DNA from: Neocallimastix sp. 'constans' | Taxonomy: Eukaryota | NCBI GenBank assembly: GCA_050613775.1 | Contig: JBODTK010000014.1 | Location: 620,001 to 684,000, forward strand | DNA: 64,000 nucleotides | Direction: 5' to 3' | Shown: one piece after another, positions 14,833 through 46,798 of the stretch | How the letters are laid out: each line of letters opens with the position of its first letter | How positions within the stretch are numbered: the first letter of the stretch is position 1 | The notes under the pieces: generated by a model | The model's database searches: none | The model's input: the letters and a program-made list of their open reading frames with translations, nothing else | Told to the model about the DNA's origin: nothing | Translations under genes and position numbers: made by a program

Positions 14833-14844
14833 ATTTATCAATTA

Positions 14845-15354
14845 TGATACGATATATTTTATTTATGTATCTAAATTAATATTTATTTTATTTTATTTGG
14901 ACGATAACAGTAGGGAATAATTGACAAAATAATATATTCTAATATTATATAGAATAATACACACAATAATAATATTCACACTTTAATATTTAGTTTATTT
15001 ATTTTATTTATTTATTATCATTCATCAATAAAAATACATCATCAATATAAATATTTGTTAACTAGTTAAAATATAATTAAATCATTCAATAAAATATAAT
15101 TAATACTAAAATCTCTTATGTTATTAATATAAACTAAATATATAAAACTACACTAAACTATACTAATAAACATGTTTTTAGGTTAAATTATTAATAAAAC
15201 TAGATTAATATTAATAAAAGAACCATTCTTTAAACTATTATAATTTACTAACTATATATATTATTACTAAATTATTATTAACCAATAAGATTTCATCAAA
15301 TAATTTCTAACCTAAATTTCACTAAATTATGGTATTTATGGTAGTACCGTATCA
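14845..15354. mobile_element. Solo LTR family H
   Basis: TGATACG...CGTATCA terminal inverted repeat; TSD ATTA both sides; homologous to 34619-35869. Confidence 0.8.
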
Positions 15355-16219
15355 ATTATGTTATGGTTCGGGTTTTATTAAAATTTTTATTTAATTATTT
15401 ATTTTTAATATTTTTCTGTCTACATTTTAATTATTGAAAAACTTCACTTATTTATACTTTTTGAAAAAAAATAAATATGTAAAGCCTTTCTACATTTTAT
15501 TATCATATTTAAAAAAAATAATTTACTATTACTAATTAATTAAAATTTTATATTAATTTAAATTAACTAATTCATAAGTATTTTTATTTTAATAAATTTT
15601 GTTTATATAATTTTATATTATTTTTCATATACTAAAACTAAATTATTTAATATATACGAAAATTAACAAACATAATTTAAAAAGATTTTACAGAAAAATA
15701 AAGTTATTTTAATCAAGAATGTTAATATAATATTCTTATTTTTTATATAAAATAAATTTAAAAACTATAATATATTTAATATTTATTATTAATCAATTAA
15801 GATTTGATTTTATTTGTGGGAAATAAAAATATTAAATAATCAATTTAAAAATAAAATAAAATACTAAAAAAAAAATACAAGTTTAATATTGATACAATAT
15901 AATAATAATATAATAATATATTTGAAAATAAAAATAAAATATTAATATTGATAATAAACACTTTAATAAAATAATAAAATTTAAGGTTAAATTATAGATA
16001 TTGATATTAATAATAAAAATATAGAATTATTGATAATATTTTAGAAACTTTTAATAAAAATAAAAAAAAAATATATTTAGAAAATATTTTAGTATAGAAA
16101 ATATAGTAAAGTAATATTAAGTAAAGAATAATATAATGGATTATAAAGTAAGTTGAAATTCTAATTAATAATCCATTATATGTTCGTTCTTTACCAAGAT
16201 GCCCCCACTAAGACTCAAG

Positions 16220-19200
16220 CTAATCTATAGCTGAGTTATACTTTACTATATTTTTCAAATGAACATTACGATTCATTTGAATCATAGTATTTGGGTCCGC
16301 AAGTGTTACGGTATTAAATTGTTTTTTTATTACTTTTAAAGAACCGACAAAATAAGGTTCTAATTTAGAACGACTAAAATTTCGAACAAGAACTAAATCA
16401 CCGATTCTTATGTTTTTGGAATTTTTCATGCTATTTTTTTTTCTTCCCTTCGATTGGCCCAATATTTACTTGCGTTCTTTACATTTTCAGCTGCTTCCAT
16501 GGTCCACCTATAATGTGAGATAAATTTTTCTAAAAGAATTTCATCTGAAGATTTATTCACTCCTTGTGTAGGTCTAGCAGCAATGTCGAAAGGCTGTTGA
16601 TCCTCATGACCATAAACTAATTCGAAGCTAGAATGTTTGGTTACAGAATTCTTTGAAGTTCTAAGGGCCCACAAGGCTGAAGGTAATACTTCATCCCAGT
16701 CTTTATTTTCTTCACCAAGTAATCTCAATAATTTACCAATTTCTTTATTCCTATTTTCAACCAATCCATTACTTTCTGGGTGATAGGTAGTGGTAAATTT
16801 TACGTAAACATCATAAGTCCAGGAATATTTTAGTCATATCCGATGTGAATTGAACGCCATTATCCGTTGTAATGACTTGAGGAACTCCATGTCTAGCGAA
16901 AACATTTATTAAAAACTTAATGATGTCCTTAGATGTAATATTTTCAGTAGGTTCAGCCTCCACCCACTTTGTGAAATAATCCACCGCAACAATGATATAT
17001 TGGTTTTTATTACCAGTCTTTATTAAGGGACCAATAATATCAAGTCCAAGATGAGTAAAAGGGCCTTCAACTTCTGTTGGAATGTTTTCGGTTGGTTCTG
17101 GATATGGCTGAGGGCGATTTAACTGACATTTTTCGCATTTTGAAATTATCCGTTTTATATCGTTGACCATATCATTCCAGTAGTAACTTTTTCTAAGTCT
17201 TTGATATGTTTTATAATAACCTTCATGGCCAACATGATGTGCTTCGAGAATTAATTTTAGTTTTTCATTTGTTTCGGTAACAAGTTTTCTATAATTATTT
17301 CCATCTATAAAATAATCTATACCATCAATCTTTGTAAATTTTTCTTCAATAAATTCTTTAATTACTTTAGAAAGTGAATCATTTTCATCATCTTTATTCG
17401 TTTTTATAGCTAATACCTTTTGTTCTTTATCGTTCTTCATTCTAGATAAAGCGTCGGCTACTACATTCTTTTTACCTTGCTCATAGCGAATATCCACTTT
17501 TAGCATACTTGCAGTCAAACACCATCTTGCTTGTCGTGCATTATTCGGTTCCTTATTATTAAATAAACCTAGTAAAGGTTTGTGATCTGTAAAAACTATG
17601 GTTCTAAAGGGGCTTCCCATAATATAAGGTTTTAATTTAGTAATACAATAATATAAAGCCGTTCCTTCCAAATCGGTTATTCCATAATTCTTTTCTGCTT
17701 TGGTTAAGCTACGGCTAATGAAATGAATCGGGTGTTCTATTTCCGATTCGTCTTTATGCAATAAAACTCCACCAATACCTTCATATGATGCATCTGTTCG
17801 AATAATGAATTCTTTGGAAAAATCAGGATATTTTAAAATAGGAGCATTAATTAATTTTTCTTTTAATTTGGTAAAACTTTGTTTTTGTTCATTATTCCAT
17901 TTATATTTTACGCCTTTTCTTAATAGCTTACAAAGAGGAGCTGAGGTTTGAGCACATTCATTTATAAAGTTCCTATAATATCCTACAGCACCTAAGAATG
18001 ATCTTAACTCATGTATATTCGTGGGTTCTTTCCAGGCTTTAATTGCTTCAATTTTACTATTTTGAGGACTAAGACCCTTAGTAGAAATCATGTGACCAAG
18101 AACTTCAACTTCCGTTTGCATAAAGTGACATTTTTCAATATTAATTTTTAATTTATGTTCCTTGAAGATGGCTAATACCTGTTTTATGTGTTGGATATGT
18201 TCTTCGACAGTTTTTGAATATATAAGTATATCATCAATAAAGTTGAAAACGCATTTTCCGATTAAAGGAAATAAAATTCTATTCATCTCCCGTTGGAAGG
18301 TAGCCGGAGCTCCAGTTAATCCGAAAGGCATAACTTTGAATTGGTAGTTGCCAAATTTGGTTGTAAAACTGGTTATTTCAACACTTTCTTCGTCCATTAG
18401 GATTTGATGGTAACCTGAGTATAGATCCATAGTAGTAAAGATTTTGGCACCATCTAGACTGTCAAATATCTCGTCAATATATGGAAGGGCATAAGAGTCT
18501 TTTTCGGTTAGATCATTCACCTTGCGGTAGTCCACACACAATCTCCATTTTCCATTAACCTTTGGGACCACAACAACAGGTGAAGACCATTCTGAATAAG
18601 ATGGTACAACTAGCTTTTTCTTAATAAGTTTAATTAGTTCTTCTTTAATAATATCAGATTTAAATTTGGTTACTCTGTAACATCTTTGTTTAACAGGTTT
18701 TGCGTTCGCTTTCAAGTTAATTTTATGAGGGGCCAAGTCTGACGGTGTTAATTCTTCAGAAGATGTCGCTATAATGTCCAAGTTTTCTTCAAGTAATTTT
18801 ACTATTACATCTTTATAATCTTTACAAAGACTTGCTAAAAATTTTTCATCATGGATATACTCTTGCGGAGATAGACCTTCAAGTTTCTTTAATTCATTAG
18901 TTGTGTCTTCATCTTCAAGTATTTTCCTTACTATACATACTAATTCTTCTTCTTCTTGGGAATTATTATTAATAGGAGCTATAACGTCGATTAGTCCTTG
19001 AGAATTAAATTGACATAAACTATATCTTATAGGATGGATAAAAAGATTGTGTTCTACTTGAGTTTGAAAATTAATCAACAAATCATAAAATGGGTCATCA
19101 TCATCAATTATTCGAAAGTCTACTATCATTTTATAATCATTAATCTTAACAGGTATTCGTACAATGATTCCTTCCGAATACTCATCATTCTTAGTCGCTA

Positions 19201-20335
19201 AACGTATCCTTCCACGACTAATACCTACTTCTTCATAATTTCCAGGTAATTTCTCATAAAATTTTTTTGTGATAACATTGAGGTTACTACAAGAATCAAT
19301 AAGTGCTTTACCAGGAATTTCATCTACTGTTACATCAACCATGGCAATATCTTCTGAGGTTTCCTTACTTTTGCTAATATAAGAGTGATCAATATTATTT
19401 ACCAAAGTAGCAGCAGCAATAGTATTGTTTAATGCACCTATTATTTTCTTTTCAGGTTTTTCTAATTTTAATCCTTGACTTACTTGACTTCTGACTTTTG
19501 GAGAAACATTGAGGAGCTGACCGAAACTAATATTACACTTGGTTTCATTCAAATCTTGTAAAACATCATTTTCTTCCTGATCCTTACACATCTTGATGTT
19601 CCTAAGCGTTCTACTAATTGTTGCTTTTTCTTTAGGCTCTTGAAAATCTATGAGCTTCTGTAATGTAATATTCTCATGACCTTCGTCATTAAGCTTTTCA
19701 GGAACTTCAATAACTTCCATTTCATTGACTTGTTTTGTTTTAATAATTTTATCGTTTTCATTATCGATTAATTTATTTAATCGTTGATGCATTTTATCAC
19801 TAGTAGTACTGATGCTATTTCTTTGTTTTGAAGAATCCAGACTTTGCTTTTCTCTTATAGTAATATTATCCTCCCTTTCCTTTCTTTTTCCCTTGTTATT
19901 TCCAAAGTTAGCTCTTTCTTTATTTCGAATTTGTTTTTCTTTGGCTTTCTCAATATTTATATTAGGCTGCGCCATTATCGAAGGATGTAGTTGATTTTTA
20001 TTTTTAACAATTATTCTATTTTCTATTTCTTTCTCTTTTATCTTTCTTATTGCAGGAGTTGTTATAGGGGTAGGATTATCTTTGAGACTTTTACGTTGTC
20101 TCTTTTCATTATTTTCACTAGTTTCATCGTTAGTCGTCAACTTCCTTTTTGTCGCACTAACTATAAATTCTACATCATTCTCATTATCGGATTCTTTGTG
20201 AGTTTCATTAGTGTAGGAAGAATCTTCTTTTTCTTCCTTATTATAATCTTTTGTACTACTAGGAATAGTTTTGTATTGTAATGAAGCTATTTTATTTTTA
20301 TAGGGAGTGCTTCCTCTCCCTTTTAGTGGTTTAAA
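16220..20335 (-). pseudogene. pol: Pol of element F (PR-RT-RH-IN), two frameshifts in integrase
   Basis: ORFs 16811-20140, 16426-16764, 16220-16462 are colinear with intact pol 38946-42995; breaks may be mutation or assembly error. Confidence 0.9.
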
Positions 20336-21216
20336 GATTTTCCACTATATAACCGTTTCTTATTTTCTTGAATAATTGCATTTAACTTAGGACAATTATA
20401 CTGCAAATGTCCTGGATCGCTACAATAAAAACAGGCTTTAATGGTAAGATTTTTCATTTTTTTTGTTAAGTCCTCCAATTCGTAATCTTTATTTCTTTTT
20501 GGGCTTCTAACTTCATAATTCTCTCTTACTACCTTTCTGTTGTTTTGATAATTATTCCTGATATTTATTCTTGGGTTGACAATTTCAGTTGAGTACTCTT
20601 TTGAGGGTCTCAAATTCATTACTCTATCAACTTTTTCGGCAATGTCAAACGCCCGATTTAAAGAAATGTCATCCTTAAGGGAGACCCTTTTCCAAGCTTC
20701 TTTATTGTTCCTAAGAGCATCAATATAATCGAGAACACTGACTCGCTTCTTTCTTTTCTTATCTAATTTCAAATATATGGATCGGAAACGAGTATTAAAG
20801 TCTTTTACTCGCTCATTTCTTTTAATTCTTAAAGCACGGAGCTCACGAAGTAACATATTCTGGTCTTCTTTAAGACCATAAAAAGTTTCTATTGCTTCTA
20901 CAATTTCCTTTAAGGAAGGATATTCATCTTTTTTCTTTTCTTCTGAATCAGATTCTTCTTCTTCTTCGTCCTCACTTTCTGATTCAGAATCGGTACTGTA
21001 ACTGTCAATTAAATCCTGGATAACTTCGCGAGGCTCTCCAGTAGACGTGAGTAAGCAGGCGGTAAAAATCTTTTTGGGATCAGTAACTTCCTCAAGTTTT
21101 ATCCATAATCGGATTTCTGATTCCCAAGATTTGATATCGAGATTTTCCTTTGAAATTTTCTCGATATCTTTTAATTCCTTTTTTAATTCTTTAAAATTGA
21201 TTTTATTTTCAGCCAT
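20323..21216 (-). CDS. gag: Gag of element F with CCHC zinc knuckle
   Basis: CFYCSDPGHLQYNC; first ATG at 21216 (MAENK) aligns with gag 42992-43936. Confidence 0.9.
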   Translation of the reverse strand: MAENKINFKELKKELKDIEKISKENLDIKSWESEIRLWIKLEEVTDPKKIFTACLLTSTGEPREVIQDLIDSYSTDSESESEDEEEEESDSEEKKKDEYPSLKEIVEAIETFYGLKEDQNMLLRELRALRIKRNERVKDFNTRFRSIYLKLDKKRKKRVSVLDYIDALRNNKEAWKRVSLKDDISLNRAFDIAEKVDRVMNLRPSKEYSTEIVNPRINIRNNYQNNRKVVRENYEVRSPKRNKDYELEDLTKKMKNLTIKACFYCSDPGHLQYNCPKLNAIIQENKKRLYSGKSLNH

Positions 21217-22500
21217 TTGAAAATTTAAAAATGGTATTAATGCTATGATATCCAATTTAAAAATATGTTTACTTTAAAAATATATTTAATAACAAAAAAA
21301 AATAAATTTATCTTTGTTTTATACTAATATAATTATGGACTCAGAAAACCCTCTGACAATCCAATTCTTTATTCCAATAATAATTCAGACTCAGAATCTC
21401 TCTCTGAAAATCTGATAAATTAATTCAGACTCGAAAACACCCTCCGAAAATCTGAAACAAAAAAAAAAAAAATTAAAATTCAGACTCAAAAACGCAATTT
21501 GAAAATCTGAAGCTTTTTATTATGAATTTTAATATTTATTATATTCTCTTAAGCATTAATACACAGAATATGTATATCTTGATTTTTTTTTTTATTTATT
21601 TGTAGTAATAACTTATTTATTTAATTTTATTCAATATATTTATTTCCTTTATTAAAATAATTAATATAACATAAAACAAATTGTATAAATACTTAAATAA
21701 TAATAATAATATATATTTATTTTTATTTTTATTTTTTTTTTTTTTTTTTTTTTTGTATATATTTAATATTCTATTAATTCTTTGTTATAACATTTAATGA
21801 AATGAAATATTAAATAAAAAGTTAAAATACAAGCCAAACTATATAGTGTTGAACCATCAAATATATAGCTTGTTAACCCTTCTTACAATAAGTCCCCTTA
21901 GCTCTTTATTGATAAGTTGATAATGTCGATTGCTAATTATTAAGAAACTTAATAAAAAGAAGGTAGCAATATTAAATTCTTTTTAATTTGGCTAACTTAT
22001 TGTTAGTAATAAAGAAGATAATAACGTATCCTTCCCAGTATCAACAAGATCAAAACAATAAAGTATTATGTGTGGGTGTTCAACTATCCCGCGTAGAGAG
22101 TTGTAAGACAGCTTATTTATATTTTTCTTTTTAATTAAAATTTAATTAATTATATAACGAATAATAGAAAATTTAACACACAAAAAAAAAAAAAATTCAA
22201 TTATAAAAATTTCAATAAAAAAAAATTTAATTATATAAAATCATAAAAATAATACACTTATTTGAAAAATAATAATAATAATCTAATTTTATATATTCTA
22301 TATATATATATTGTACATGTATAATTAAAAAAAATAAAATAAACTGATAAACATAAAAAAATTACAATTTATTATTTAGAATTAAAAAAAAAAAATTTAT
22401 TTATAAAATTTATTATTATTTAAAAAAAATTAAAAATTTGTACTACAAAAAAAAAATTTTTGCTTATTATTTTAATATTTATCATTAATTAAAAAAAAAA

Positions 22501-22543
<43 letters not shown>

Positions 22544-23972
22544 TATATAAATCTATATCTATGATAATACTATTGGTTAAAAAAAAATTTTTTTTTTTTA
22601 AAAAGTTTGTTCTACACTAAAGAAAAATTTAATTTATTATTTATTAAAAAAAAAAAATTTATTAATGAAATATGAAATATTTATTATTTTAATAAAAGGA
22701 AAAAATATATATATTTTTTTATTTTATTGCAAAAAAAAAAATAATAATAATAATAATAATAATAGACGAACAAATTTATAAAAGCCTAAAATAAAAATAA
22801 AAAAAAAAACTATATATTTTAACGTCACTTCGCAAGAATGACCAGGGTTTTATCAGGGATCGAACCTGACCCACCTCTTATTTTCTACGCGAGTGAACAA
22901 ACTATCACCTGTTGAAGTGTGTAGTTGCCTTCAGCGTGAAGGTTTTATAGTTCTAGGGCGTATTTGCCTAATTGTCAAGGATTTGTTCCTTGAGATACTC
23001 GCTGTATGTAAAATATTTAATAATTTGAATACGTATTTAAATGTAATGTAATGTAAATTATTGTGGATAAAAATGTTTTCCAAATTTTTAATATAAATTT
23101 AAATGTATTCCAAATTATTAATTTAAATAATTTTCTCAAAAATTTATGACTAAATTATTTGGAGAATTTATGTAACAATTACTCAGTTGAATCACGAAAC
23201 TTCATAAATTAAAAAATAATTAGTCATTAATTAGTTAAATTAAAATAATTAAAGGAATATTGCCTTTTCCGTTTGTTTACAAAAACTTGCCGTTTTGTTT
23301 ACTTGTCTTTTAAATTATAGAAATTCTAAAAATAAAAATAGCAAGTTGTGGTTTAGTAAATTGGTTTTCACAACTTGGCAAAATTTAAATTAAATATATG
23401 GATAGAATATATTTAATCATATAATTAATGAATTAAACTCTAAATTTTCTTCATAGAAAATTTTAGAAAAATTAGATAGTTTTAAATAGGATTTATATTA
23501 AAATAATTCATAACATTTCATGTAATTTATTAAATAATGTAATTGATAATATAAAATAATATGTTTATGTAATTTATTAAAATTTATTTTGATTTAAAAC
23601 TTTATTTTGAAAAAGTATAAAAAGAGTTAATTTTTCAACTATTGAACGATAGTTGGAAAATCGTATAGAATAGGAAAATTTAAATTTTATTATTAGTCTC
23701 GTAACTATTATTAGAATAGTTACTTTCTTATAAAACAATTATATTATAGTTTGTAAAATCTTAACTGCTAGTGGGAACTCCGGAAAGGACCCTGCGTTAC
23801 CCAGTTAAGTGGTTGTTGAAAATTAGTTAATAAATAAAATAAATAAATAAAAGAAATTAAAAAAGAAAATAATTAATTAAATAATAGAGGTTTAAGATAT
23901 AGTGTTATTAGTGTAGTAAAGTTAGTTTAGAATAGCCACAAACCTAGACTTGATAAGTACTTTATTTTACAC

Positions 23973-24546
23973 TGTAACGAAACTCATAACTAGTAAATTA
24001 GTAATTATGGTTCAATGGTAAGTTATCATAACCATCGGGCTGAACCCTTAGGGTTCGACACCTACTCTTTCCAAATTTTAATAACTTTTTATTTATTATA
24101 ACTAGAATATTAAAGAAATTACTAGTTTTTATCGGTTAAACAATTGAACCGATAAAACTAGAAAAATCTATTTTATTAATATTTTTTATCATTTTTTATC
24201 TAAGATTCATTTTCTAGAAAGAAAACTTGTTTTCTTTAATTTTCTTTAATTTTCTTTTATTTCTAATAATTACTAATAACAACTGATAACTTAAAATAAT
24301 TAATTTTCCTGAAAAACTATAAATAGGTGTAAAATTTCATAATAAAATATTTTTACTTGTGCTTTTATTAATTAATTTTAAAGTAATTTAAAATATTACA
24401 ATGATTAATTAATAAAATAATAATTTACATTTTTTACTAATAAAAAAACTTATTTTAATAAAACATATTTTAAATTACTTTAGTGTCGAGAACCTTTCGT
24501 GTAAAAAACCTTATAACAATCTTAAGTAACATTAAGATTTGTTACA
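23973..24546 (+). mobile_element. Solo LTR family C nested in the leader of element F
   Basis: TGTAACG...GTTACA; same A/B-box layout as 3902-4545; no clean TSD. Confidence 0.65.
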
Positions 24547-24747
24547 CTCGCGTTTACAATCTACAAAACCTTGCAAAATTGTAAATAAGAGTTTATGAAA
24601 TTAATATCCTGCAAGCTAACACTGTCTTACTCAATATTATTAACTTCGTAAATTTGTTAACTTTTTATTATTTTTTTTTTTATTATTATTTTTTTTATCT
24701 ATAATCTATAATTAAATAAAGTTACTACAAAAACTAAAGTTTTCCAA

Positions 24748-24791
<44 letters not shown>

Positions 24792-25073
24792 ATAACTTTT
24801 ATTATTATTAATATTAATATTAAATTATTAATTATTATTATTTAACAAAACTTATGGATAATCTGATAGTATACCCTGTCTGACGTGCAGCTTGCCTCTT
24901 CACGGCGTCATGCCACGCGGGTACCACGGCTACTGTATTCAATATAAAATACAGCAGTCCAGAGCCTACTAGCCCAATTACTATGTAGGTTAAACTTAGC
25001 CCGGAAATCTATATCCAAGGCTTTGTTAAATAATTTAATTAATAAATAATATTAAATTTTATTTTTCTAATAA

Positions 25074-25091
25074 TCCCCGATATCTCCACCA
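25074..25091 (-). promoter_or_regulatory. PBS, probably tRNA-Ala
   Basis: TGGTGGAGATATCGGGGA, complementary to a tRNA 3' end ...TCTCCACCA; identical at 45676-45693. Confidence 0.8.
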
Positions 25092-25943
25092 TAAATTATG
25101 TTATGGTTCGGGTTTTATTAGAATTTTTATTTAATTATTTATTTTCAATATTTTTCTGTCAACATTTTAATTATTGAAAAACTTCACTTATTTATACTTT
25201 TTGAAAAAAAAATAAATATGTAAAGCCTTTCTACATTTTATTATCATATTTAAAAAAAATAATTTACTATTACTAATTAATTAAAATTTTATATTAATTT
25301 AAATTAACTAATTCATAAGTATTTTTATTTTAATAAATTTTGTTTATATAATTTTATATTATTTTTCATATACTAAAACTAAATTATTTAATATATACGA
25401 AAAGTAACAAACATAATTTAAAAAGATTTTACAGAAAAATAAAGTTATTTTAATCAAGAATGTTAATATAATATTCTTATATTTTATATAAAATAAATTT
25501 AAAAACTATAATATATTTAATATTTATTATTAATCAATTAAGATTTGATTTTATTTGTGGGAAATAAAAATATTAAATAATCAATTTAAAAATAAAATAA
25601 AATACTAAAAAAAAAATACAAGTTTAATATTGATACAATATAATAATAATATAATAATATATTTGAAAATAAAAATAAAATATTAATATTGATAATAAAC
25701 ACTTTAATAAAATAATAAAATTTAAGGTTAAATAATAGATATTGATATTAATAATAAAAATATAGAATTATTGATAATATTTTAGAAACTTTTAATAAAA
25801 ATATAAAAAAAAAATATATTTAGAAAATATTTTAGTATAGAAAATATAGTAAAGTAATATTAAGTAAAGAATAATATAATGGATTCTAAAGTAAGTTGAA
25901 ATTCTAATTAATAATCCATTATATGTTCGTTCTTTATTAATTA

Positions 25944-28636: not shown

Positions 28637-29056
28637 TCATTTAAGAATTCTAATCTCTTCATAATTATTACATAAGTTTTTAATTTGATTGATTTCTTCA
28701 TTAATCCTAAACTTTCTTGCAATAAATCTTTGGTAGTTTACCCTTGGATTCTTCAAAATGTTCGCCTCATAGTCCAAACGTTCTTGAAAGTCCTCTAAAC
28801 AGTCGTACCATAATTCTAAGTCATTCTTAATATTTAAAATAAGTCTACTATTTTGCATGTTTAATAAAGATAATTTTCTAGTTAACTGTCTTTTTATTTC
28901 ATAATAATTTTCATTATCCTTTTCTAATGTTACTATTTCTAGTTTAATATCTAAAAGTTCTTTAATATGATCTACACTAACATCTAAATTTCTTTCAAAA
29001 GATGAATAATGTAAATCAAACTTTTCGAAATAAGTGTTAAATAATCTTCTAGACAT
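28637..29056 (-). CDS. Hypothetical helical/coiled-coil protein, 139 aa
   Basis: ATG-started ORF of normal complexity amid AT-rich DNA; no motif recognised. Confidence 0.55.
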   Translation of the reverse strand: MSRRLFNTYFEKFDLHYSSFERNLDVSVDHIKELLDIKLEIVTLEKDNENYYEIKRQLTRKLSLLNMQNSRLILNIKNDLELWYDCLEDFQERLDYEANILKNPRVNYQRFIARKFRINEEINQIKNLCNNYEEIRILK

Positions 29057-34618: not shown

Positions 34619-35869
34619 TGATACGTATCTTTTATATTTAAAGATGTATCTAAATAATTTTATTTGTTTGGACGTTGTCAGAAGGGAATTATTAACAAAA
34701 TAATATATTCTAATAAATATAATAATAACACATAATGTATAAATATAAATATATAATTTAAATGTAAAGATTTGTCTTTATTTATTTATTCTTATTTCTT
34801 TATTTATTTTTATTACATTATTCTCAATGTTTACAAAAATATAAAAATACAAGTTATATATTTATTATTATCTTTCTCACTAACTATCTAATTATACACT
34901 TAATAATTAATATTTAATACTCTATAAACTATTATATTTTCTACTAATAAACCTGTTATTTTGAAGTATCTTTATTATATATTTCCTATATTATAACAAA
35001 GAACTCCTCGTTTTATTATTAATGAATTATCAAAATATGTATCTAACTATTTAGTCTTATTTAATTATCTACCAATCATTATTAATTTTTAATTTATTAC
35101 TTTAACTAATGTTGAAATTATAACTGAATTGAAATCTCAATTTCAGTTATTTACATTTCAATAATTAAAAATATTATTTATTTAATTATAAATAATATAT
35201 ATATTTAAATAATTAATAATTAATATAAATTCTTGTTTAATATTTAAAGGGTTATCTTAGGCCTAATAATTCTGAGAATATTAATAAATAAGGTTTATAT
35301 TAATAATTAATTTCAATGATACATTTGGCGTCACGTGTATTTTATTTATATTATGTTTTTATATATGTTTACAACATATCTATATTAAATTCAATTATTC
35401 AAATTAATTATATAATTAAATTTATCCTTATATTTTATTATTATTTATATTACTATATTATTACTATCTTATAATTAAATATTATTATTATGTAACTTAC
35501 AAAGTATAAAAGAAAGATGTAAAAATCTATCTTTTATGTTCTTTGTAAGGTTATTGTAAAATTACCTTAATAGTAATATATTATAGATATTTTATTAAAT
35601 AAAATCAATAAATTTAAAATCAAATTAATTTGATAATTCTAATTATCAAAGTTTATTATAAATAAATTTTCATTAAACTAAACATTTAAATATTTATTAT
35701 TATTATTATATATCTATATAGTATATTACTATATAGACATATCGACTTAGTGAATATTTTTATTAAAACATATTATTTTATTTAAATTTAAATTAAAAAT
35801 TATATTAAAATCTTAACAACTAATTTCTAAAACTATTTCTAATAATGTTTTTAGTGTGGTATCGTATCA
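34619..35869. mobile_element. Solo LTR family H, interrupted by 35110-35818
   Basis: TGATACG...CGTATCA; TSD ATTA (right copy split by a later insertion). Confidence 0.8.
35110..35818 (+). mobile_element. Solo LTR family K
   Basis: TGTTGAAA...CTTAACA; TSD ACTAA 35105-35109 / 35819-35823. Confidence 0.9.
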
Positions 35870-35872: not shown

Positions 35873-36835
35873 TGTAAGAATCTATAATTATTTTTAAATA
35901 AAATAATTATATTTTCTTAGTTAAGTTATAATTATAACTTTATTTAATTATATAATATTTATTCATTTAAATATTATTAATAATTTATTAAACTCAATAT
36001 TAAATAATCATTAATTTAATACAACAAATTTATTTAATTAATTATTATTTATACATTTATAAATAATTATAGTTTATTTAATTATATATTTAATTATTAA
36101 ATTTATTAGTCTTAGTTTATTTATTTAATTAAATTGTAAACAAATATATTATGTATTCTAATATGTACTTAATAATGTATTCTGTATTTTGTTTATTAAT
36201 ATCATTATTATGTTATTTTCCTTATTTGTAAATTTATGATTTTATGGTCGAAATATCTTTTATTATTTTATTCTTTTATTTTCGATCAATTAAATTAGAT
36301 TAGCTAATCGGTCAATTAGGGTTTTTCCCAATCACTTTTTAAAAGTAATTGGTTTTACCTAATTGATACGATGATCGATATGGATAGAATATCGATCAAA
36401 AATCTTATCTAGGTTTTTCTCTCTAATCTTTTCCTAGATAAGAGATTTGTTAAGATTAGAAAACATTTTTTAATTTAACCTTATTTTTCAAAAAAGTATA
36501 AATAAAGCTCTTGAATTCTCTTTGAGAAATCAAGAGTTATTATTATAACAATTATAATATAGTAATAACATTAATAAATTTTTTATATTTCTATTTTAAT
36601 AAAGTAAGTTTTAATAAAAAACAAATTTAAAAAAAATAAAATAAAATAATCTTTTCTCTTTGACTATTTTGTGTTATTAGTTTATTATAATTAGTTATAA
36701 TAAACTCTCTCTTATAGAAGATAAGTATATTTATCTTTTTTTTGTTTTCTCAATTTAATAATAATTATTATTTAGTTATTATTAAGTTGTAGTTAATAAT
36801 TTAATTCTAATTAATTTTATAATTAAATTATTACA
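35873..36835 (+). mobile_element. Solo LTR family A
   Basis: TGTAAG...ATTACA; TSD CAATT 35868-35872 / 36836-36840. Confidence 0.9.
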
Positions 36836-36841: not shown

Positions 36842-37904
36842 TGGTAGACTCGGGGTTGACACTTAGATATTTAAAATCAAGCAGGGGGGACGGGTATTAC
36901 CCTGCTTTGATTTTAAATAAAAAAAAAAAAATAATTCTTTATTAAAAGTTATTTATTTTTTTTATTAATATAAAATTTTATTATTTAAAGTACACATATT
37001 TAATTTTTAAGAAATTGTTACAATATTTATATTTTTTTATAAATTTAAGGTATAATTAATTGTTTATAATTTAAGTAATTTTATAGAATTATTGAATTAA
37101 TTTTATATCAATAATTCATTTTTGTTTTAATTTTTATAAATATAATAATATAATATTCAAATATAATTTAATTAAAAATAATTATAAAATAAATATATAG
37201 AAAATAGTTTTTACTATTTTCTTTGATATTTTTAAGTTAAATAAATTGTTTTTAAAGATTAATATAATAAATTTAATAATCTTTAATTATTTTAAATAAT
37301 ACTTGTAATTATTTTCAAAATAAAATAAAATTTTTATAATATTTAATTAATAAATTTGATAATATTTAAATAATAATTTTTATAATAATTAAAAATTTTT
37401 AATAATAATTTTTAATAATAAATTTAATTAATAATCTTAATAATTTTATAATAATATTTAATAGTTATAATATATAAATTTTTATAATAATATTTAATAA
37501 TTTTAATAATTTTATAATATTAATAATTTATAATAATTTTTAGAATAATATTTAATTAATAATTTTAATAATTTTATAATAATTTTTATAATAATATTTA
37601 ATTAATAATTTTAATAATTTTATAATAATTTTTATAATAATATTTAATTAATAGTTTTAATAATTTAGTATCTTAAAAGTATAATTTTAATATTTACAAT
37701 TGTATTTTAATATACATATATTTAATAATATAACAATAAAGTAATTAATTAAAATTTATTTACATTATTTACAAGTTAAAATTAATTTATATCAAAATAA
37801 ATTAAATTTTATTATTAAGTTTAGGTTATCAAGAATATAGGAAAGTACAATTTAGTAAAGAATTATTAATAATAAAATAAAGGTTATTAATTCATTCTTT
37901 ACTA
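36842..37904 (-). mobile_element. Solo LTR family G
   Basis: Highly similar to 37909-38922; flanked by ATTA; terminal CCA reads CTA. Confidence 0.9.
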
Positions 37905-38945
37905 ATTATGGTAGACTCGGGGTTGACACTTAGATATTTAAAATCAAGCAGGGGGGGACGGGTATTACCCTGCTTTGATTTTAAAAAAATAAATCTTTAT
38001 TAAAAATTATTTATTTTTTTTTTTTTTTATTAATATAAAAGTTTTTTATTTAAAGTACACATTTAATTTTTAAGAAATTGTTACAATATTTATATTTTTT
38101 TATAAATTTAAAGTATAATTAATTGTTTATAATTTAAGTAATTTTATAGAATTATTGAATTAATTTTATATCAATAATTCATTTTTGTTTTAATTTTTAT
38201 AAATATAATAATATAATATTCAAATATAATTTAATTAAAAATAATTATAAAATAAATATATAGAAAATAGTTTTTACTATTTTCTTTGATATTTTTAAGT
38301 TAAATAAATTGTTTTTAAAGATTAATATAATAAATTTAATAATCTTTAATTATTTTAAATAATACTTGTAATTATTTTCAAAATAAAATAAAATTTTTAT
38401 AATATTTAATTAATAAATTTGATAATATTTAAATAATAATTTTTATAATAAGTAAAAATTTTAATAATAATTTTTAATAATAAATTTAATTAATAATCTT
38501 AATAATTTTATAATAATATTTAATAGTTATAATATATAAATTTTTATAATAATATTTAATAATTTTAATAATTTTATAATATTAATAATTTATAATAATT
38601 TTTAGAATAATATTTAATTAATAATTTTAATAATTTTATAATAATTTTTATAATAATATTTAATTAATAGTTTTAATAATTTAGTATCTTAAAAGTATAA
38701 TTTTAATATTTACAATTGTATTTTAATATATACATATATTTAATAATATAACAATAAAGTAATTAATTAAATTTTATTTACATTATTTACAAGTTAAAAT
38801 TAATTTATATCAAAATAAATTAAATTTTATTATTAAGTTTAGGTTATCAAGAATATAGGAAAGTACAATTTAGTAAAGAATTATTAATAATAAAATAAAG
38901 GTTATTAATTCATTCTTTACCATGATGCCCCCTCTAAAACTCAAG

Positions 38946-41900
38946 CTACATCGAAGCTGAGTTATACTTGACTATATTCTTCAAATGAACATTCCTATTC
39001 ATTTGAATTCCAGAATTTGGATCAGCCAAGGTAACCGTATTAAATTGTTTTTTTATAACTTTAAGAGGACCAACAAAATAAGGTTCTAGTTTAGTTCTTG
39101 AAAAATTTCTAACTAGAACTAAATCACCTTCCCTAATTCTTTTTCCCTCATTCAAACTATTTTTTTCCTCTCTTCTAGCAGCCCAATACTTATTTGCATT
39201 TTTAACTTTTTCGGCTGCTTCTAAAGTCCATCGGTAATGATTTATAAATTTTTCTAACAACACTTCATCCGATGACTTATTAATATCCTTGGTAGGTCTA
39301 GCAGCAATATCAAAAGGCTGCTGATCTTCCCTACCATAAACCAACTCAAAACTTGAATGTTTTGTTACCTTATTTTTGGTAGTTCTAAGAGCCCATAAGG
39401 CGGATGGTAAAACTTCATCCCAATCCTTATTCTTAGAACCCAACAACCTCAATAACTTTCCGATCTCTTTATTACGGTTTTCCGTAAGTCCATTACTTTC
39501 TGGATGATATGTGGAAATAAACTTCACATATACATCATAGAGATCTAAAAATATTTTCGTCATGTCCGAGGTGAACTGAACACCATTGTCAGTTGTTATT
39601 ACCTGTGGAACACCATGACGAGCAAACACATTAATTAAGAACTTAATCACATCCTGTGATGTTATATTTTCCGTGGGTTCTGCTTCAACCCATTTGGTGA
39701 AGTAATCCACCACAACCATAATATATTGATTATTATTCTTCGTTTTAATCAAAGGTCCAATAATATCTAAACCCAAATGTATAAAAGGACCTTCTACTTT
39801 AGTTGGAATATTTTCTGTAGGTTCTGGATATGGTTGTGACCTATTCAACTGACACTTGTCACAACTTTGCACCACTCTTTTAATATCCATCACCATATTA
39901 TTCCAATAAAAACTTTTACGAAGCCTTTGATAAGTCTTATAATATCCCTCATGACCTATCTTATGGGCTTCTAAAATAAGTTTTACTCTTTCCGTTTGAT
40001 CAGTAATTAATTTACGATAGTCATTACCATCAACAAAGTAATCTTCACCATCTATCGTAACAAATTTTTCATTTATAAAGTCTTTAATAGTTTTAGAAAG
40101 CAACTCTTCTTCTTCCTTTGAAGTTAACTTAGTTGCCAATACCACAGAATCATCTCTTTTCTTCATCCTAGATAATGCATCGGCTAACACATTTTTCTTA
40201 CCCATTTGATATTGAATTTCAACACCAAGGGTACTAACAGTTAAGCACCACCTTGCTTGCCTAGCATTATTAGGTTCCTTATTTTTAAAGAAACTGATTA
40301 AAGGTTTATGATCTGTTATTACTACTGTTTTATTAGGATTTCCTAATATATAAGATTTCAACTTAGTAATACAATAAATTAATGCAGCTCCTTCCAAGTC
40401 AGTAATGCCATAATTTTTCTCGGCTTTACTTAAACTTCTACTTATATAATGAACTGGATGTTCCTTTTTGGTTTCTAAGTCTTCTTGGAGTAATACTCCT
40501 CCAATACCTTCATAGGAAGCATCCGTTCTAATTATAAACCTTTGATTAAAACTTGGATATTTTAAAATTGGAGCATTTATTAATTTTTCTTTTAACAGAT
40601 CAAAACTTTGTTGATGTTCATTATTCCATTTATATTTAACATTCTTTCTTAATAATTTACATAAAGGAGCAGAGATTTGGGCATATTTATCAATAAAGTT
40701 TCTATAATATCCTACTGCTCCAAGAAAAGATCGTAATTCATGAACATCAACAGGTGCTACCCACTCCTTGATAGCCTTAATTTTGCTATCCTGGGGACTT
40801 AAACCTTTCACTGATGCCTTATGACCTAAGACTTCTACTTCAGTCTGCATAAAGGCACATTTTTCAATGTTAATTTTTAACTTGTGTTGGCGAAATACTT
40901 CCAACACTTGCCTAATGTGGCTTATATGTTCTTCTATACTCTTAGAGTATATTAAAATATCATCTATAAAGTTAAAAACAAACTTTCCTATAAATGGGAA
41001 AAGAATCCTATTCATTTCCCTTTGAAATGTAGCTGGGGCTCCGGTTAAACCAAAAGGCATAACCTTGAATTGGTAGTTACCAAATTTTGTGGTGAAGGTG
41101 GTAATTTCTACACTTTCCTCATCCATCAAAATTTGATGATAACCAGAATAAAGATCCATTGTTGTAAAAATCTGTGCCCCATCTAAACTATCAAATATCT
41201 CATCAATGTAAGGTAATGAATAAGAATCTTTAACTGTTAAATCATTAACCTTACGATAATCAATACATAATCGCCATTTACCGTTCTTCTTCGGTACTAA
41301 CACTATTGGCGATGACCATTCGGAACAAGAAGGTTCAATTAATTTCTTATTAATTAATTTAATTAATTCCTCCTTAAGTATATCCGACTTAAATTTAACT
41401 AATCTATAGCACCTTTGCTTAACTGGTTTCGCACCAGGAATTAAATTAATCTTATGTGGAGGAAGATCAGAAGGTGTTAATTCTTCTGAAGAAGTAGCAA
41501 CTATTTCTAAGTTCTCCTCCAGAATTTTAATTATTTCATCTTTATATTTTTCGTTTAAAGTATTTAGGAAAATTTCATGATGAATATACTGCTTTGGGGA
41601 TAATCCTTCAATTTTCTTTAAATCATTCTTTTTGGAATCCTCATCCAAAGCCTTAATCATACACAACAACTTTTCTTCATCTTCATAATCATTATTAATA
41701 GGTGCAATAACGTCAATTACTCCCTCAGGAGTAATTTGACACAAACTATATAAAATGGGGTGGATAAACAAATTATAATCAATTTGGGTTTTTAAGTTAA
41801 TTAGAATATCGTAAAAAGGATCCTCCTTTTCTACTATTCTACAATTAACCATTAATACAAGATTATTAATCTTTACTGGCACCCGAATGATATAACCTTC

Positions 41901-43001
41901 CGAGTAATCATCATTCTTAGTTGCCAACCTAATTCTGCCACGACTAATATCAATAGGTTCATATTCGGACGGAAGCTTATCTAAAAATTGTTGAGTAATT
42001 ATACTTAAATTACTACATGAATCAATTAAAGCCTTCCCCGAAACACCTTCAACTGTAACATCAACCATGGCAATATCCTCTTCACATGGTTCGTTACCTT
42101 TACTTTTATAAGTGTGGTCTATGTTATTAACGACCACAGTCGTGGCTGACACATTATCCAACACCCCAGAGATATTAGATTGGTCCCTATCCAATTTAAT
42201 ACCCTGTGACACCTTATATCTTAATTTTGGAGCAGCATCCAATAACTGTCCAAAAGTAATATTGCAATGGGCAGAATTTAAATCTTTAAGAATATCATAT
42301 TCTTCTTCCCCCGATTGCATCTTAATTTTCCTAGATACTCTAGAACTTTTATTTTCTTTTTGAGTATCTTTATCTTTACTAATTAACACCTTTGTTAAAT
42401 CAATTACTTTATTATTCTCCTTCACAATACTTTTATTATTATCATTATTTACTTTCATTAAATTTTTATTCTTTCTTTTATCATTATTTACATTATTTAT
42501 AATAACTTCATCATTCACTAATGAATTATTATTAATATTATCATTACTATTATCATTACTATGATTATTACTATAATTAGTATTACTATTACTAGCTCTT
42601 TCATTATCACGAATTTGTCTTTCAATCTCTTTTTCTTTTTCAATTCGTGGTTGAGCTAGAATAGATGGTTTAATTTGTTTAACAATTTTATTACTTATAT
42701 TATTTTCTTTTACTTCTCGTTCTTTCTGTTTTCGTAATGCAGGAGTTATTATAGGTTTAGGATTCTCCTTCAACGACTTATGAATCCTTTTCTCTGCACT
42801 ACCTTCATCATTATTAACATCATAAATTTTACGTTTAGATGCTCCTACTAAATAATCAACTTTCTTTTTATTAACCACCCTTTTATTAGCAGGAGTTTCT
42901 TCAATATTAGAAAGACGAGAATTTTTAATTTCTTTTTGATATTTAATTGAAGCTGCTTTATTAAGTATGGGAGAGCTTCTTATCCCATTACTCAATTTAA
43001 A
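38946..43001 (-). CDS. pol: Pol of element G (PR-RT-RH-IN), entered by -1 frameshift
   Basis: 1349 aa ORF: LIDSCS, FIDD, TDAS, HHCC zinc finger, D..TDNG..E, GPL C-terminal motif. Confidence 0.95.
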   Translation of the reverse strand, partial: FKLSNGIRSSPILNKAASIKYQKEIKNSRLSNIEETPANKRVVNKKKVDYLVGASKRKIYDVNNDEGSAEKRIHKSLKENPKPIITPALRKQKEREVKENNISNKIVKQIKPSILAQPRIEKEKEIERQIRDNERASNSNTNYSNNHSNDNSNDNINNNSLVNDEVIINNVNNDKRKNKNLMKVNNDNNKSIVKENNKVIDLTKVLISKDKDTQKENKSSRVSRKIKMQSGEEEYDILKDLNSAHCNITFGQLLDAAPKLRYKVSQGIKLDRDQSNISGVLDNVSATTVVVNNIDHTYKSKGNEPCEEDIAMVDVTVEGVSGKALIDSCSNLSIITQQFLDKLPSEYEPIDISRGRIRLATKNDDYSEGYIIRVPVKINNLVLMVNCRIVEKEDPFYDILINLKTQIDYNLFIHPILYSLCQITPEGVIDVIAPINNDYEDEEKLLCMIKALDEDSKKNDLKKIEGLSPKQYIHHEIFLNTLNEKYKDEIIKILEENLEIVATSSEELTPSDLPPHKINLIPGAKPVKQRCYRLVKFKSDILKEELIKLINKKLIEPSCSEWSSPIVLVPKKNGKWRLCIDYRKVNDLTVKDSYSLPYIDEIFDSLDGAQIFTTMDLYSGYHQILMDEESVEITTFTTKFGNYQFKVMPFGLTGAPATFQREMNRILFPFIGKFVFNFIDDILIYSKSIEEHISHIRQVLEVFRQHKLKINIEKCAFMQTEVEVLGHKASVKGLSPQDSKIKAIKEWVAPVDVHELRSFLGAVGYYRNFIDKYAQISAPLCKLLRKNVKYKWNNEHQQSFDLLKEKLINAPILKYPSFNQRFIIRTDASYEGIGGVLLQEDLETKKEHPVHYISRSLSKAEKNYGITDLEGAALIYCITKLKSYILGNPNKTVVITDHKPLISFFKNKEPNNARQARWCLTVSTLGVEIQYQMGKKNVLADALSRMKKRDDSVVLATKLTSKEEEELLSKTIKDFINEKFVTIDGEDYFVDGNDYRKLITDQTERVKLILEAHKIGHEGYYKTYQRLRKSFYWNNMVMDIKRVVQSCDKCQLNRSQPYPEPTENIPTKVEGPFIHLGLDIIGPLIKTKNNNQYIMVVVDYFTKWVEAEPTENITSQDVIKFLINVFARHGVPQVITTDNGVQFTSDMTKIFLDLYDVYVKFISTYHPESNGLTENRNKEIGKLLRLLGSKNKDWDEVLPSALWALRTTKNKVTKHSSFELVYGREDQQPFDIAARPTKDINKSSDEVLLEKFINHYRWTLEAAEKVKNANKYWAARREEKNSLNEGKRIREGDLVLVRNFSRTKLEPYFVGPLKVIKKQFNTVTLADPNSGIQMNRNVHLKNIVKYNSASM

Positions 43002-43675
43002 CGTTTATTGTTTCTAATTTCTTTCCTATTTTTCTCAACAATTGCTCTCAACTTTGGGCAATTGTTTTGATAATGACCTGGTTCTTTACAGAAATAACAA
43101 GCCTTTATTGTTAAACTTCTCATTTTTCTTGTTAATTCCTCTATGTTATTATCTTCTTTAGGTTTAATATTAACTTTTTGTTCTAATTTATTTTTAATAG
43201 GAGGATGAAAATTAACTCTATTACTAAAAGAAGATGTATTTGCAGAAGGTGAAGGGTTAGTAGGATGTCTTCTTTGATTACTACCCATATAAGTTAACCT
43301 ATCTGCTTTTTCAGCAATTTTAAAGGCTTTTGACAGAGAAATGTTATCAAATAAGGTTAGACGTTTCCAGGCTTCAACATTGTTTTCAATGGAGTCTGTG
43401 TAATCTAAAACACTTATCTGACTTCTTTTCTTTTTATTTAATTTTAAATATAAAGTTTTATACTTAATATTAAAATCTTTGATTCTTTCATTTCTCTTAA
43501 TTCTTAGAGCACGTAGCTCTCTTAATAAATTATTTTGATCCTCCCTAATGCCATAAAATTCTTCTATCGCTTTTACAATTCTATTAAGGGAAGGATAAGC
43601 CTTATTCTTTTTATCAATTTCTTTATCTTCTTCATTATCATCATCCTCATCTTCATCATTAATATCCTTATAATT

Positions 43676-43706
<31 letters not shown>

Positions 43707-43936
43707 CTATCATCATCTTTATTATTATCATCCATTAATTCTTGGATGACTTTCCTGGTTTCACCAATTGAGGTTAAAACACAGGCATAAAATATAATCT
43801 TGGAGTCTTCAACATGTTCAAGCTTTATCCAAAGCTCTAAATCAGACTTCCAAGTTTTAACATCTAAATTTTCTTTGGATATTTTTTCAATATCCTTAAG
43901 TTCCTTTTTTAAATCTTTAAAATTAATTGTACTCAT
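42992..43936 (-). CDS. gag: Gag of element G with CCHC zinc knuckle
   Basis: CYFCKEPGHYQNNC; homologous to gag of element F. Confidence 0.92.
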
Positions 43937-44911
43937 TTTAAAAAAAACACACTTTTAAAAAAAAAAATAAAATAAAAAAAAAATTGTTTTATTAATTATT
44001 TAATTGCTATATTTTTATTTATTTATTTATTTATTTACAATTAAAATTATATATTTAAGTAATTTATATCTCTAGTGAGACGTTTCCGGCTAGTGTATAT
44101 TTAATTTTGCTATATACACCCGTACTCCCCCTCCTGGACACTAGAATAAATATAAATTAATAAACTAGTTGGAGTGTTCACTATTCTTTCAAGCTAATAA
44201 CCCCTTTCGTTTATCTTTACTTAAATAAAAAAAAATATATACAATTATTTACAAAAAAAATTTTTTTTTTTTTTTAATATAGCAATTAAAAATATTTAAA
44301 AACACAAAAATTAATATTTTTTTTTTTTTTTTTTTTTTATTTATTTATTTATTTGTTATCGGTTATTATTACAATATTTACAATTACAATTACAATTATT
44401 ATTAAGTTTATATAATTACAACTTAAAAAAAACAAATAAACTTAATTAAAAACAAGGTAAATTAACAAACCTAATACAACTTGAAAAACCGCTATCTATT
44501 ACAACTGCCGACCACGCAGAGGGACCTTAGTATTTCGGTATACTAAGTGAATTTGCCTGAGTCAAGTGGAGGAGCACCCAAACCGTGTTGAACGTATAAT
44601 GGGTGATCTATAGGGTAATTTCTGCTTCCCAACAGTATTTACCGCTATATCTAATCGGGGTTCGATTAGTTCGTAACCGGCCCCTCTCCAAACACCTGAT
44701 TAAACCACTCGCAATTATAGAATTATCTATAACTGCTTAGTACGCAGTAAACTCAGTATATAGTTTTATTTGGAGCACGCGAAGACCAAATAAAACTGAT
44801 GTTAATTTTTATTACTACCACAACAACAATCACAACAACAACACCAACCACAACAACAACACAAAAACCGATAACAAAAAAAAATTTGATGATGATGAAT
44901 GTAAAAGTGTG

Positions 44912-44977
<66 letters not shown>

Positions 44978-45061
44978 TAATTTAATTTAATTTAATTCTA
45001 TTAAATTTAATTTAAAAAAATTATTCTCATAATTCCAAAAAAAATAAGTCCTAGTAGTTCC

Positions 45062-45632
45062 AATTTCCTTCTTGGTCTTCTCCTTCTTGGTCTTCTTCTT
45101 GGTCTTCTTCTTGGTCTTCTTCTTGGTCTTCTTCTTGGTCTTCTTCTTGGTCTTCTTCTTGATTTTCTTCTTGGTCTTCTTCTTGGTTTTCTTCTTGGTC
45201 TTCTTCTTGGTTTTCTTCTTGGTCTTCTTCTTGGTTTTCTTCTTGGTTTTCTTCTTGGTCTTCTTCTTGGTCTTCTTCTTGGTTTTCTTCTTGGTCTTCT
45301 TCTTGGTTTTCTTCTTGGTCTTCTTCTTGGTTTTCTTCTTGGTTTTCTTCTTGGTTTTCTTCTTGGTCTTCTTCTTGGTTTTCTTCTTGGTCTTCTTTTT
45401 CTTGGTCTTCTTCCACTTGGTTTTCTTCTTGGTCTTCTTTTTCTTGGTCTTCTTCCACTTGGTCTACTTCTTGGTCTTCTTTTTCTTGGTCTTCTTCCAC
45501 TTGGTCTACTTCTTGGTCTTCTTTTTCTTGGTCTTCTTCCACTTGGTCTACTTCTTGGTCTTCTTTTTCTTGGTCTTCTTCCACTTGGTCTACTTCTTGG
45601 TCTTCTTTTTCTTGGTCTTCTTCCACTTGGTC

Positions 45633-45664
<32 letters not shown>

Positions 45665-45676
45665 CTTCTTCTTCTT
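45062..45676. repeat. Minisatellite (12-bp TTCTTCTTGGT(C/T) units, 39-bp higher-order unit, TTC run)
   Basis: Direct reading; abuts the PBS of element G. Confidence 0.95.
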
Positions 45677-46726
45677 CCCCGATATCTCCACCAATTTTGG
45701 TAGACTCGGGGTTGACACTTAGATATTTAAAATCAAGCAGGGGGGGACGGGTATTACCCTGCTTTGATTTTAAAAAAAATAAATCTTTATTAAAAATTAT
45801 TTATTTTTTTTTTTTTTTATTAATATAAAAGTTTTTTATTTAAAGTACACATTTAATTTTTAAGAAATTGTTACAATATTTATATTTTTTTATAAATTTA
45901 AAGTATAATTAATTGTTTATAATTTAAGTAATTTTATAGAATTATTGAATTAATTTTATATCAATAATTCATTTTTGTTTTAATTTTTATAAATATAATA
46001 ATATAATATTCAAATATAATTTAATTAAAAATAATTATAAAATAAATATATAGAAAATAGTTTTTACTATTTTCTTTGATATTTTTAAGTTAAATAAATT
46101 GTTTTTAAAGATTAATATAATAAATTTAATAATCTTTAATTATTTTAAATAATACTTGTAATTATTTTCAAAATAAAATAAAATTTTTATAATATTTAAT
46201 TAATAAATTTGATAATATTTAAATAATAATTTTTATAATAAGTAAAAATTTTAATAATAATTTTTAATAATAAATTTAATTAATAATCTTAATAATTTTA
46301 TAATAATATTTAATAGTTATAATATATAAATTTTTATAATAATATTTAATAATTTTAATAATTTTATAATATTAATAATTTATAATAATTTTTAGAATAA
46401 TATTTAATTAATAATTTTAATAATTTTATAATAATTTTTATAATAATATTTAATTAATAGTTTTAATAATTTAGTATCTTAAAAGTATAATTTTAATATT
46501 TACAATTGTATTTTAATATATACATATATTTAATAATATAACAATAAAGTAATTAATTAAATTTTATTTACATTATTTACAAGTTAAAATTAATTTATAT
46601 CAAAATAAATTAAATTTTATTATTAAGTTTAGGTTATCAAGAATATAGGAAAGTACAATTTAGTAAAGAATTATTAATAATAAAATAAAGGTTATTAATT
46701 CATTCTTTACCAATTAATTTCGTATT

Positions 46727-46798
46727 GGCTCAATGGTTTAGTGGTATAATTCTCGCTTAGGGTGCGAGAGGTCCCGGGTTCAATTCCCGGTTGAGCCC
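46727..46798 (+). tRNA. trnP: tRNA-Pro(AGG)
   Basis: GGCTCAA/TTGAGCC acceptor stem, CTCGC-TTAGGGT-GCGAG anticodon arm, GGTTCAATTCC T arm, oligo-T terminator at 46799. Confidence 0.97.

Follow-up and report, generated by a model that had tools for sequence, protein, structure and literature searches.

Ty3/Gypsy retrotransposons that target tRNA genes are known from budding yeasts, Schizosaccharomyces japonicus and dictyostelids (PMC5911963; PMC4600332). Ty3 inserts 2-3 bp upstream of the RNA polymerase III (Pol III) transcription start, where its integrase contacts TBP and Brf1 and a vestigial chromodomain serves as a ruler (PMC8632968), and yeast tRNA transcription starts near -13 in a TCAACA-like motif (PMC6673722). 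The dictyostelid element DGLT-A lies upstream of tRNA genes by 13-16 bp, and DGLT-A.1 of Dictyostelium lacteum by 63-64 bp (PMC5006619). The locus described here lies in a 64,000-nucleotide stretch of contig JBODTK010000014.1 from the anaerobic gut fungus Neocallimastix sp. 'constans' (henceforth the window; G+C content 21.7%), in which 32 kb of long terminal repeat (LTR) elements are stacked immediately upstream of a tRNA-Pro gene. Very probably, the stack formed at three fixed distances from the gene because integrases dock on the Pol III initiation complex, with newcomers pushing older layers away.

The anchor gene and its target site are located as follows.

46727-46798, plus strand: tRNA-Pro(AGG), stack anchor, with an Rfam match and a T run following
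46713-46726, plus strand: tRNA-proximal target, ATTA at -14 to -11 plus a 10-nt spacer

A first-pass annotation of this DNA had reported ATTA at the junctions between elements, the last copy lying at -14 to -11 of the tRNA. ATTA was found at 7/7 of these positions, and the final copy agrees with the mapped tRNA coordinates. ATTA by itself is weak evidence in such DNA, where 810 copies occur within the stack; what exceeds chance is that each junction ATTA stands exactly between TG..CA element ends. Deletion of every insert together with one target-site copy gave an empty site identical to the one proposed earlier. The target near this tRNA reads TCAATT at -17 to -12.

Layers were defined by mapping LTR termini and then peeling inserts off, starting at the tRNA side. 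The 32 kb resolved into 12 insertions, nine side by side (top-level) and three nested, listed below from the tRNA outward together with two further elements at the distal edge.

37909-46712, minus strand: G, full-length Ty3/Gypsy element with an ATTA duplication and a TGG-type primer site; LTRs at 37909-38922 and 45698-46712, open gag at 42992-43954, open pol at 38946-43004
36842-37904, minus strand: G-solo, solo LTR of G with an ATTA duplication; 0.8% substitutions and 7 indels against the G LTRs
35873-36835, plus strand: J, solo LTR of the K/L/J lineage, 76% to the K LTR; CAATT at -16 to -12
34619-35869, no strand assigned: H2, 537 bp with ends TGATACG..CGTATCA, inserted at ATTA; a solo LTR or miniature element
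35110-35818, plus strand: M, solo LTR nested in H2; ACTAA at -65 to -61
31510-34612, plus strand: L2, 3.1 kb, with 475-bp LTRs, a self-priming site, a polypurine tract and a CAATT duplication
26869-31504, plus strand: L1, solo LTR of 476 bp minus its inserts; CAATT duplication
30813-31455, minus strand: N, solo LTR nested in L1; TTGTA at -65 to -61
27301-30807, plus strand: M', 3507 bp, nested in L1 in tandem with N; TTGTA at -65 to -61
25944-26865, minus strand as judged by its ends: I0, solo LTR whose termini resemble those of F and G; insertion site ATTA
15359-25939, minus strand: F, full-length element related to G (65% pol identity) with an ATTA duplication and two integrase frame breaks; LTRs at 15359-16196 and 25099-25939
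14845-15354, no strand assigned: H1, 510 bp, about 80% to H2; ATTA duplication
14790-14832, minus strand: G', terminal 43 bp of an older G-type LTR, its end at -23
10822-14789, minus strand: E, truncated autonomous-type M-family element in G', with its right junction at -65 and its left end lost; 5' LTR (14077-14789), gag, protease (PR), reverse transcriptase (RT) and RNase H (RH)

The first-pass annotation had described six units parted only by ATTA. The ATTA junctions are present, but two of the units are composite and conceal CAATT junctions. Its single element "I" is the solo LTR I0, the solo LTR L1 with its two nested inserts, and the 3.1-kb L2; its second "H" comprises H2, which contains one nested insert, and the solo LTR J. 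An M solo LTR at 14077 was likewise discarded, as a self-priming site and gag lie behind it. L2 contains no open reading frame (ORF) of 100 aa, and no coding copy of H was found in the window.

Six elements (H1, F, I0, H2, G-solo and G) duplicated the 4-bp ATTA at -14 to -11, and three (L1, L2 and J) duplicated the 5-bp CAATT at -16 to -12, which consists of the preceding element's final CA plus ATT. In I0 and H2 the right-hand ATTA is interrupted by the 5-bp insertion that followed; peeling that insertion back restores it. Among the nested inserts, M' and N stand in tandem within L1 with TTGTA present three times, and the M solo LTR in H2 is flanked by ACTAA. The "one site" of the earlier annotation is in fact three registers after peel-back, -14 to -11, -16 to -12 and -65 to -61. 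All nine top-level elements occupy the two near registers, whose tRNA-side edges agree within 1 bp while the duplication length differs. Members of the M/N group lie at -65 to -61 in 4/4 main-stack cases (M in H2, N in L1, M' in L1, E in G'), a position that appears only after removal of all layers nearer the tRNA. Their pentamers are ATTAT, TTGTA (twice) and ACTAA in three host elements, and their distance to the host element's end is 43, 49 or 51 nt, whereas the distance to the tRNA is constant. The chance of three hosts agreeing under uniform insertion is ~4e-6, a rough value for a pattern found after looking.

Since the distance to the tRNA is constant while the pentamers differ, position follows tRNA distance. 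Insertion position at this locus is set by distance to the tRNA and not by sequence. A contrary explanation is that insertion is directed by sequence or by resident elements, through a CA-ATT motif or resident LTR ends, with the tRNA as a bystander. The proximal duplications are indeed all A/T-rich and overlap CAATTA, a left-hand stack has the same flank and no tRNA now, and external M/N junctions lie in G LTRs on contigs without a tRNA. Such homing is nevertheless very unlikely, given that only 5 of the 35 CAATTA sites within the stack are at junctions, that the M/N group uses four pentamers at varying distances from the host end yet always 65 nt from the tRNA, and that element K at the second tRNA uses another sequence.

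Junctions in other public samples were compared after the -65 register had been recorded. Element G is present in public runs from animal faeces metagenomes and three organism samples. Contigs from 4/24 listed runs were compared over 246 bases, comprising the last 213 bases of G and the tRNA start, with a bridging rule of 31 nt. In run X12 the start of M is joined behind 46666 of a G LTR, and in run X2 the end of N is joined before 46662 of a G LTR; both junctions imply AGTAA at -65 to -61, a fourth pentamer, assuming a G copy at -14. With these two external cases, M/N ends lie at -65 in 6/7, with one exception under an assumed anchor. Among the matches listed, X12 and X2 each contributed a 51-nt contig starting exactly at 46662, and the loose ends at 46713-46714 were mixed and not readable as single flanks. 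Runs X1, X10 and X2 gave no cover past the end of G and count neither way. Searches of the viral and prokaryote collections with the M LTR, the tRNA, the pol sequences of G and K, and the capsid gene of M' described below returned no match.

These contigs also bear on the assembly itself, in which repeats of several tRNA-Pro loci could have been chained through shared ends. Identical tRNA copies and near-identical LTRs do exist, the junction near 10830 between E and a neighbouring element D is chimeric, and the frame breaks may be sequencing errors. Against such an artefact, most adjoining layers belong to unrelated families, and the 3-4 bases joining them are too few for chaining; each insert has matching duplications on its two flanks, and these tally from layer to layer; and over 58 nt an X12 contig agrees fully with the G-tRNA junction, although its LTR side of 25 nt falls below the 31-nt rule. 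We consider misassembly very improbable.

Insertion beside tRNA-Pro recurs elsewhere in the window.

58507-58578, plus strand: second tRNA-Pro(AGG), identical in sequence to the first, Rfam match
51209-58490, minus strand: K, Tf-like element with a self-priming site, its end 16 nt short of the second tRNA-Pro
720-6790, no strand assigned: left stack, made up of solo LTRs (a-f) of K/J type with c, N and O nested among them; flank matching that of the first tRNA

Both tRNA genes of the window (2/2) therefore carry an insertion just upstream, and the target sequence of K differs from that at the first tRNA. At 51156-51199, ahead of K, lies a short K-type LTR end that suggests an older layer at the second tRNA; a supposed O-like LTR ending at 51155 did not match O. 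When the left stack is anchored by its shared flank, its duplications lie at -16, -15, -15 and -14; no tRNA remnant was found alongside. Between the two stacks, D (a broken pol of the G lineage) is fused to the Tf-like E near 10830 (6787-14076), probably through a deletion that took the 5' half of D and the integrase of E. The same deletion may also have taken the left stack's tRNA gene.

The Rfam scan of the window found nothing beyond the two tRNAs, and named relatives of the window's proteins come from Neocallimastix and Orpinomyces. The window as a whole is repeat-filled, and a Pfam scan of 15 of its ORFs supported no host protein gene. Together with the nesting of O at an untargeted-looking place, and with the clustering of both elements and tRNA genes at centromeres in S. 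japonicus (PMC4600332), this invites the explanation that elements piled up without targeting in a heterochromatic or centromeric refuge holding tRNA genes, selection sparing the gene. Random nesting would, however, scatter over the 32 kb, and F, G and L2 (22 kb) contain no insert bounded by the mapped LTR ends, while three nested inserts share one base-exact register. An untargeted pile-up is accordingly very unlikely.

Tethering to the tRNA gene also predicts an order among the layers. The claim that newer insertions push older ones outward is supported by the M/N inserts at -65 after peel-back and by the split duplications. Because the nested inserts reach -65 only after peel-back, G', L1 and H2 were each likely tRNA-adjacent in turn. 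The split duplications place I0 before L1 and H2 before J; the order H1-F-I0 follows from the stacking model only. In line with the earlier annotation, the LTRs of G are near-identical (0 substitutions in 1014 columns, one 1-bp indel) and its gag and pol are open. In F the two LTRs differ by substitutions at 9 of 838 columns and by 2 indels, and the integrase frame is broken twice. Substitutions between paired LTRs amount to 0% in G, 0.63% in L2 (3/475) and 1.07% in F, so that the youngest pair is nearest to the tRNA gene (G vs F, p = 0.0008; G vs L2, p = 0.03). Divergence increases with distance from the tRNA, as was expected of an age gradient, but only three layers are datable. The datable layers are all young, at about 1% divergence or less. 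The stack is likely a record of arrival order.

Several observations weigh against this account of tRNA-tethered, ordered insertion. The ages of L2 and F do not differ significantly (p = 0.55), and L1 is identical to the 5' LTR of L2 (0/473) though it should be older, while L2's own LTRs differ at 3 positions. The frame breaks in F could equally be sequencing errors. The left end of E is lost, and only the right junction of its duplication is readable. The M/N junction contigs of X12 and X2 stop short of a tRNA, and their register assumes a G LTR at -14. A metagenome scan with the LTR ends of F and G returned 6 loci, of which 5 were chance matches and 1 was true (L004, an internal polypurine junction); a tRNA lay beside 0/6. 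The TTTGA duplication of K fits -15 to -11 only with one extra T, and both anchors are one tRNA species in one window. Under the assumed anchor of the left stack, N lies at -73 to -69, c at -27 to -23 and O at -349. G', LTR "a" and the left-stack N, which is nested in d, each lie about 8 bp outside their family register (window 14833-14840 and 720-728); either a second placement of the initiation complex or plain scatter could lie behind this offset.

Docking on the initiation complex would account for the registers as follows. The integrases of the G/F and K/L/J groups would cut at the transcription start, as Ty3 does via TFIIIB, and that of the M/N group about 50 bp further out, presumably at the upstream edge of the TFIIIB footprint. 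Because the promoter of a tRNA gene lies inside the gene, and because the duplicated A-rich target is preceded in every case by the CA end of an element, every insertion would rebuild the start-site context and the target would renew itself. Solo LTRs likely arose later through LTR-LTR recombination.

By domain order, G, F and K are Ty3/Gypsy elements, with PR-RT-RH-integrase between direct TG..CA LTRs, a primer site and a polypurine tract; the right LTR end of F is mutated, and E and D are truncated. The G, F, D group has TGG-type primer sites where these are preserved (G, F), which we take to be complementary to tRNA-Ala in G, as well as 4-bp duplications (G, F) and the U3 end directed toward the tRNA. 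In K, L2 and E the primer site is a self-priming one that is complementary to the LTR over 12, 12 and 10 nt; the duplications measure 5 bp wherever both ends are still present, and the elements stand in either orientation. The two groups share about 40% RT-RH identity. An RT tree was built from 53/117 RT domains (one in three unnamed rows was kept; 8/125 proteins were too short), without Ty3, Tf1 or DGLT-A, and has long branches and unsettled bootstrap values. It groups E and K with plant and algal elements bearing SH3 and chromo domains (99/97, rough supports) and sets G/F/D apart, among mostly unnamed and Orpinomyces sequences. By these comparisons, the stack draws on two separate Ty3/Gypsy lineages.

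Ty3 gave the best PDB match for G pol and K pol alike, and K contains PF24626, a Tf2-type SH3 domain. The integrases of G, D and K stop 38-45 residues past a GPY/F-like motif; their alignments to Ty3 end at residues 1443-1447 of its 1547, with no more than 10 residues left in the proteins beyond that point. The region corresponding to the Ty3-type C-terminal chromodomain is absent from all three, and the integrase of E is lost. The docking surface is therefore likely unlike that of Ty3.

The closest systems share part of these features. With Ty3/sigma of Saccharomyces cerevisiae, the stack elements have in common the Ty3/Gypsy domain order, a duplication whose gene-side edge lies within 20 bp of the mature tRNA (9/9 top-level layers and K, not M/N) and a start-site-like CAA at the target (PMC6673722). 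Ty3 differs in its 5-bp duplication (G, F, H and I0 give 4 bp, and only L, J, M and N give 5 bp), in the vestigial chromodomain following the integrase SH3 domain, a region absent in G, D and K (PMC8632968), and in that no -65 register appears in the published tables examined. DGLT-A resembles the stack elements in distance (about 15 bp in most species; 63-64 or 55-65 bp for D. lacteum DGLT-A.1/A.2), in a short integrase extension without a chromodomain, and in the occurrence of several insertions at one tRNA gene, mentioned in a footnote. Its near and far registers are in separate species, whereas here both are on one gene (PMC5006619). DGLT-A also has a single ORF, while G and F have gag and pol in two frames. 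Tj1 of S. japonicus and the Tf1 group share with K, L2 and E the self-priming site complementary to the LTR and the 5-bp duplication, and Tj1 inserts just upstream of tRNA genes and clusters with them (PMC4600332). Tj1 has a stop codon after gag, and the self-priming M/N branch here differs from the group in sitting at -65. The Dictyostelium non-LTR element TRE5 also targets upstream of the TFIIIB site, at 40-54 bp (PMC5911963), but within a wider window than the base-exact site of the M/N LTR elements. By analogy, the stack elements would work like Ty3, Tj1 and DGLT-A, and by the features tested they are not members of Ty3 or DGLT-A. Neither the registers nor the stacking is new in kind.

M' carries two ORFs, one of which resembles capsid genes of circular Rep-encoding single-stranded (CRESS) DNA viruses.

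29748-30776, minus strand: 342-aa CRESS-DNA-virus-like jelly-roll capsid ORF
28637-29059, minus strand: 140-aa ORF with no assigned family and 6 homologues at 79-93% identity

M' and M have only their first 535-719 bases in common, and the 3' end of M' is its own. The capsid start codon lies about 30 nt inside that 3' end, antisense to the LTR. The capsid ORF has 106 homologues, many with the Pfam domain Circo_capsid, and its profile matched 313 representatives. The predicted model (pLDDT, predicted local distance difference test, 87) has a single jelly-roll capsid fold; its best matches in BFVD include Cressdnaviricota capsids (E 6.6e-19, template modelling score about 0.5), and among PDB structures it matched capsids of single-stranded DNA (ssDNA) viruses. 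A profile search of PDB sequences gave no match. No Rep gene was found in M', whose sole other ORF of at least 100 aa, the 140-aa ORF, had no Rep match. Close capsid copies are present in other Neocallimastix records. For the capsid homologue and the 140-aa homologue of Neocallimastix lanati alike, the longest contig given is 971,875 bp, which suggests that they travel together. Several public contigs with the capsid measure 5.27-5.33 kb, a length that hints at a larger unit.

A broader picture is possible but doubtful. In it, two deeply separate Gypsy lineages of gut fungi would have come to target Pol III genes independently and without the Ty3 chromodomain, sharing each tRNA gene between two docks, one at the start site and a base-exact one at -65; tRNA genes would grow ordered insertion records of tens of kb that drive large AT-rich genomes, and one -65 family would have acquired a CRESS-virus capsid gene within its LTR-like unit and would move it as cargo, an LTR-ssDNA virus chimera. 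A literature search with thin cover of subscription papers, Repbase and supplements found no report for gut fungi of tRNA-targeted retrotransposons or of CRESS capsids. With this locus, tRNA-directed integration, known from yeasts and social amoebae, reaches an early-diverging phylum of fungi, and near and far registers are seen on one gene. The nested -65 inserts mark layers that formerly adjoined the gene and so give an internal control on order. G, apparently intact, and the short integrases open a way to study TFIIIB recognition in the absence of a chromodomain, and might suggest safe-harbour integration for fungi in which engineering is difficult. The capsid cargo suggests a path by which genes of ssDNA viruses come into these genomes and spread there.

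Further observations concern the interiors and ends of the elements. ORFs at 45.0-45.7 kb were rejected as genes, being a tandem repeat in the G leader that is open in several frames; the repeat (45060-45680) is purine/pyrimidine-skewed, lies right behind the G primer site and in one frame would read as a Glu/Gln/Asp-rich repeat. The leaders from 5' LTR to gag are long, about 3.9 kb in F (21274-25098) and about 1.8 kb in G (43955-45697), and contain G+C-richer islands that might be structured RNA, with no Rfam match. The terminal ACCA shows C-to-T changes at the U3 ends of displaced F (25934-25939) and G-solo (37899-37904), adjacent to the junction. Within L2, 33705-33840 contains a second polypurine tract and a stretch that resembles the start of an L LTR, at 76% over about 130 bp. 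Between the first tRNA and K, 47000-50100 contains decayed Gypsy pol remnants and LTR-like sequence.

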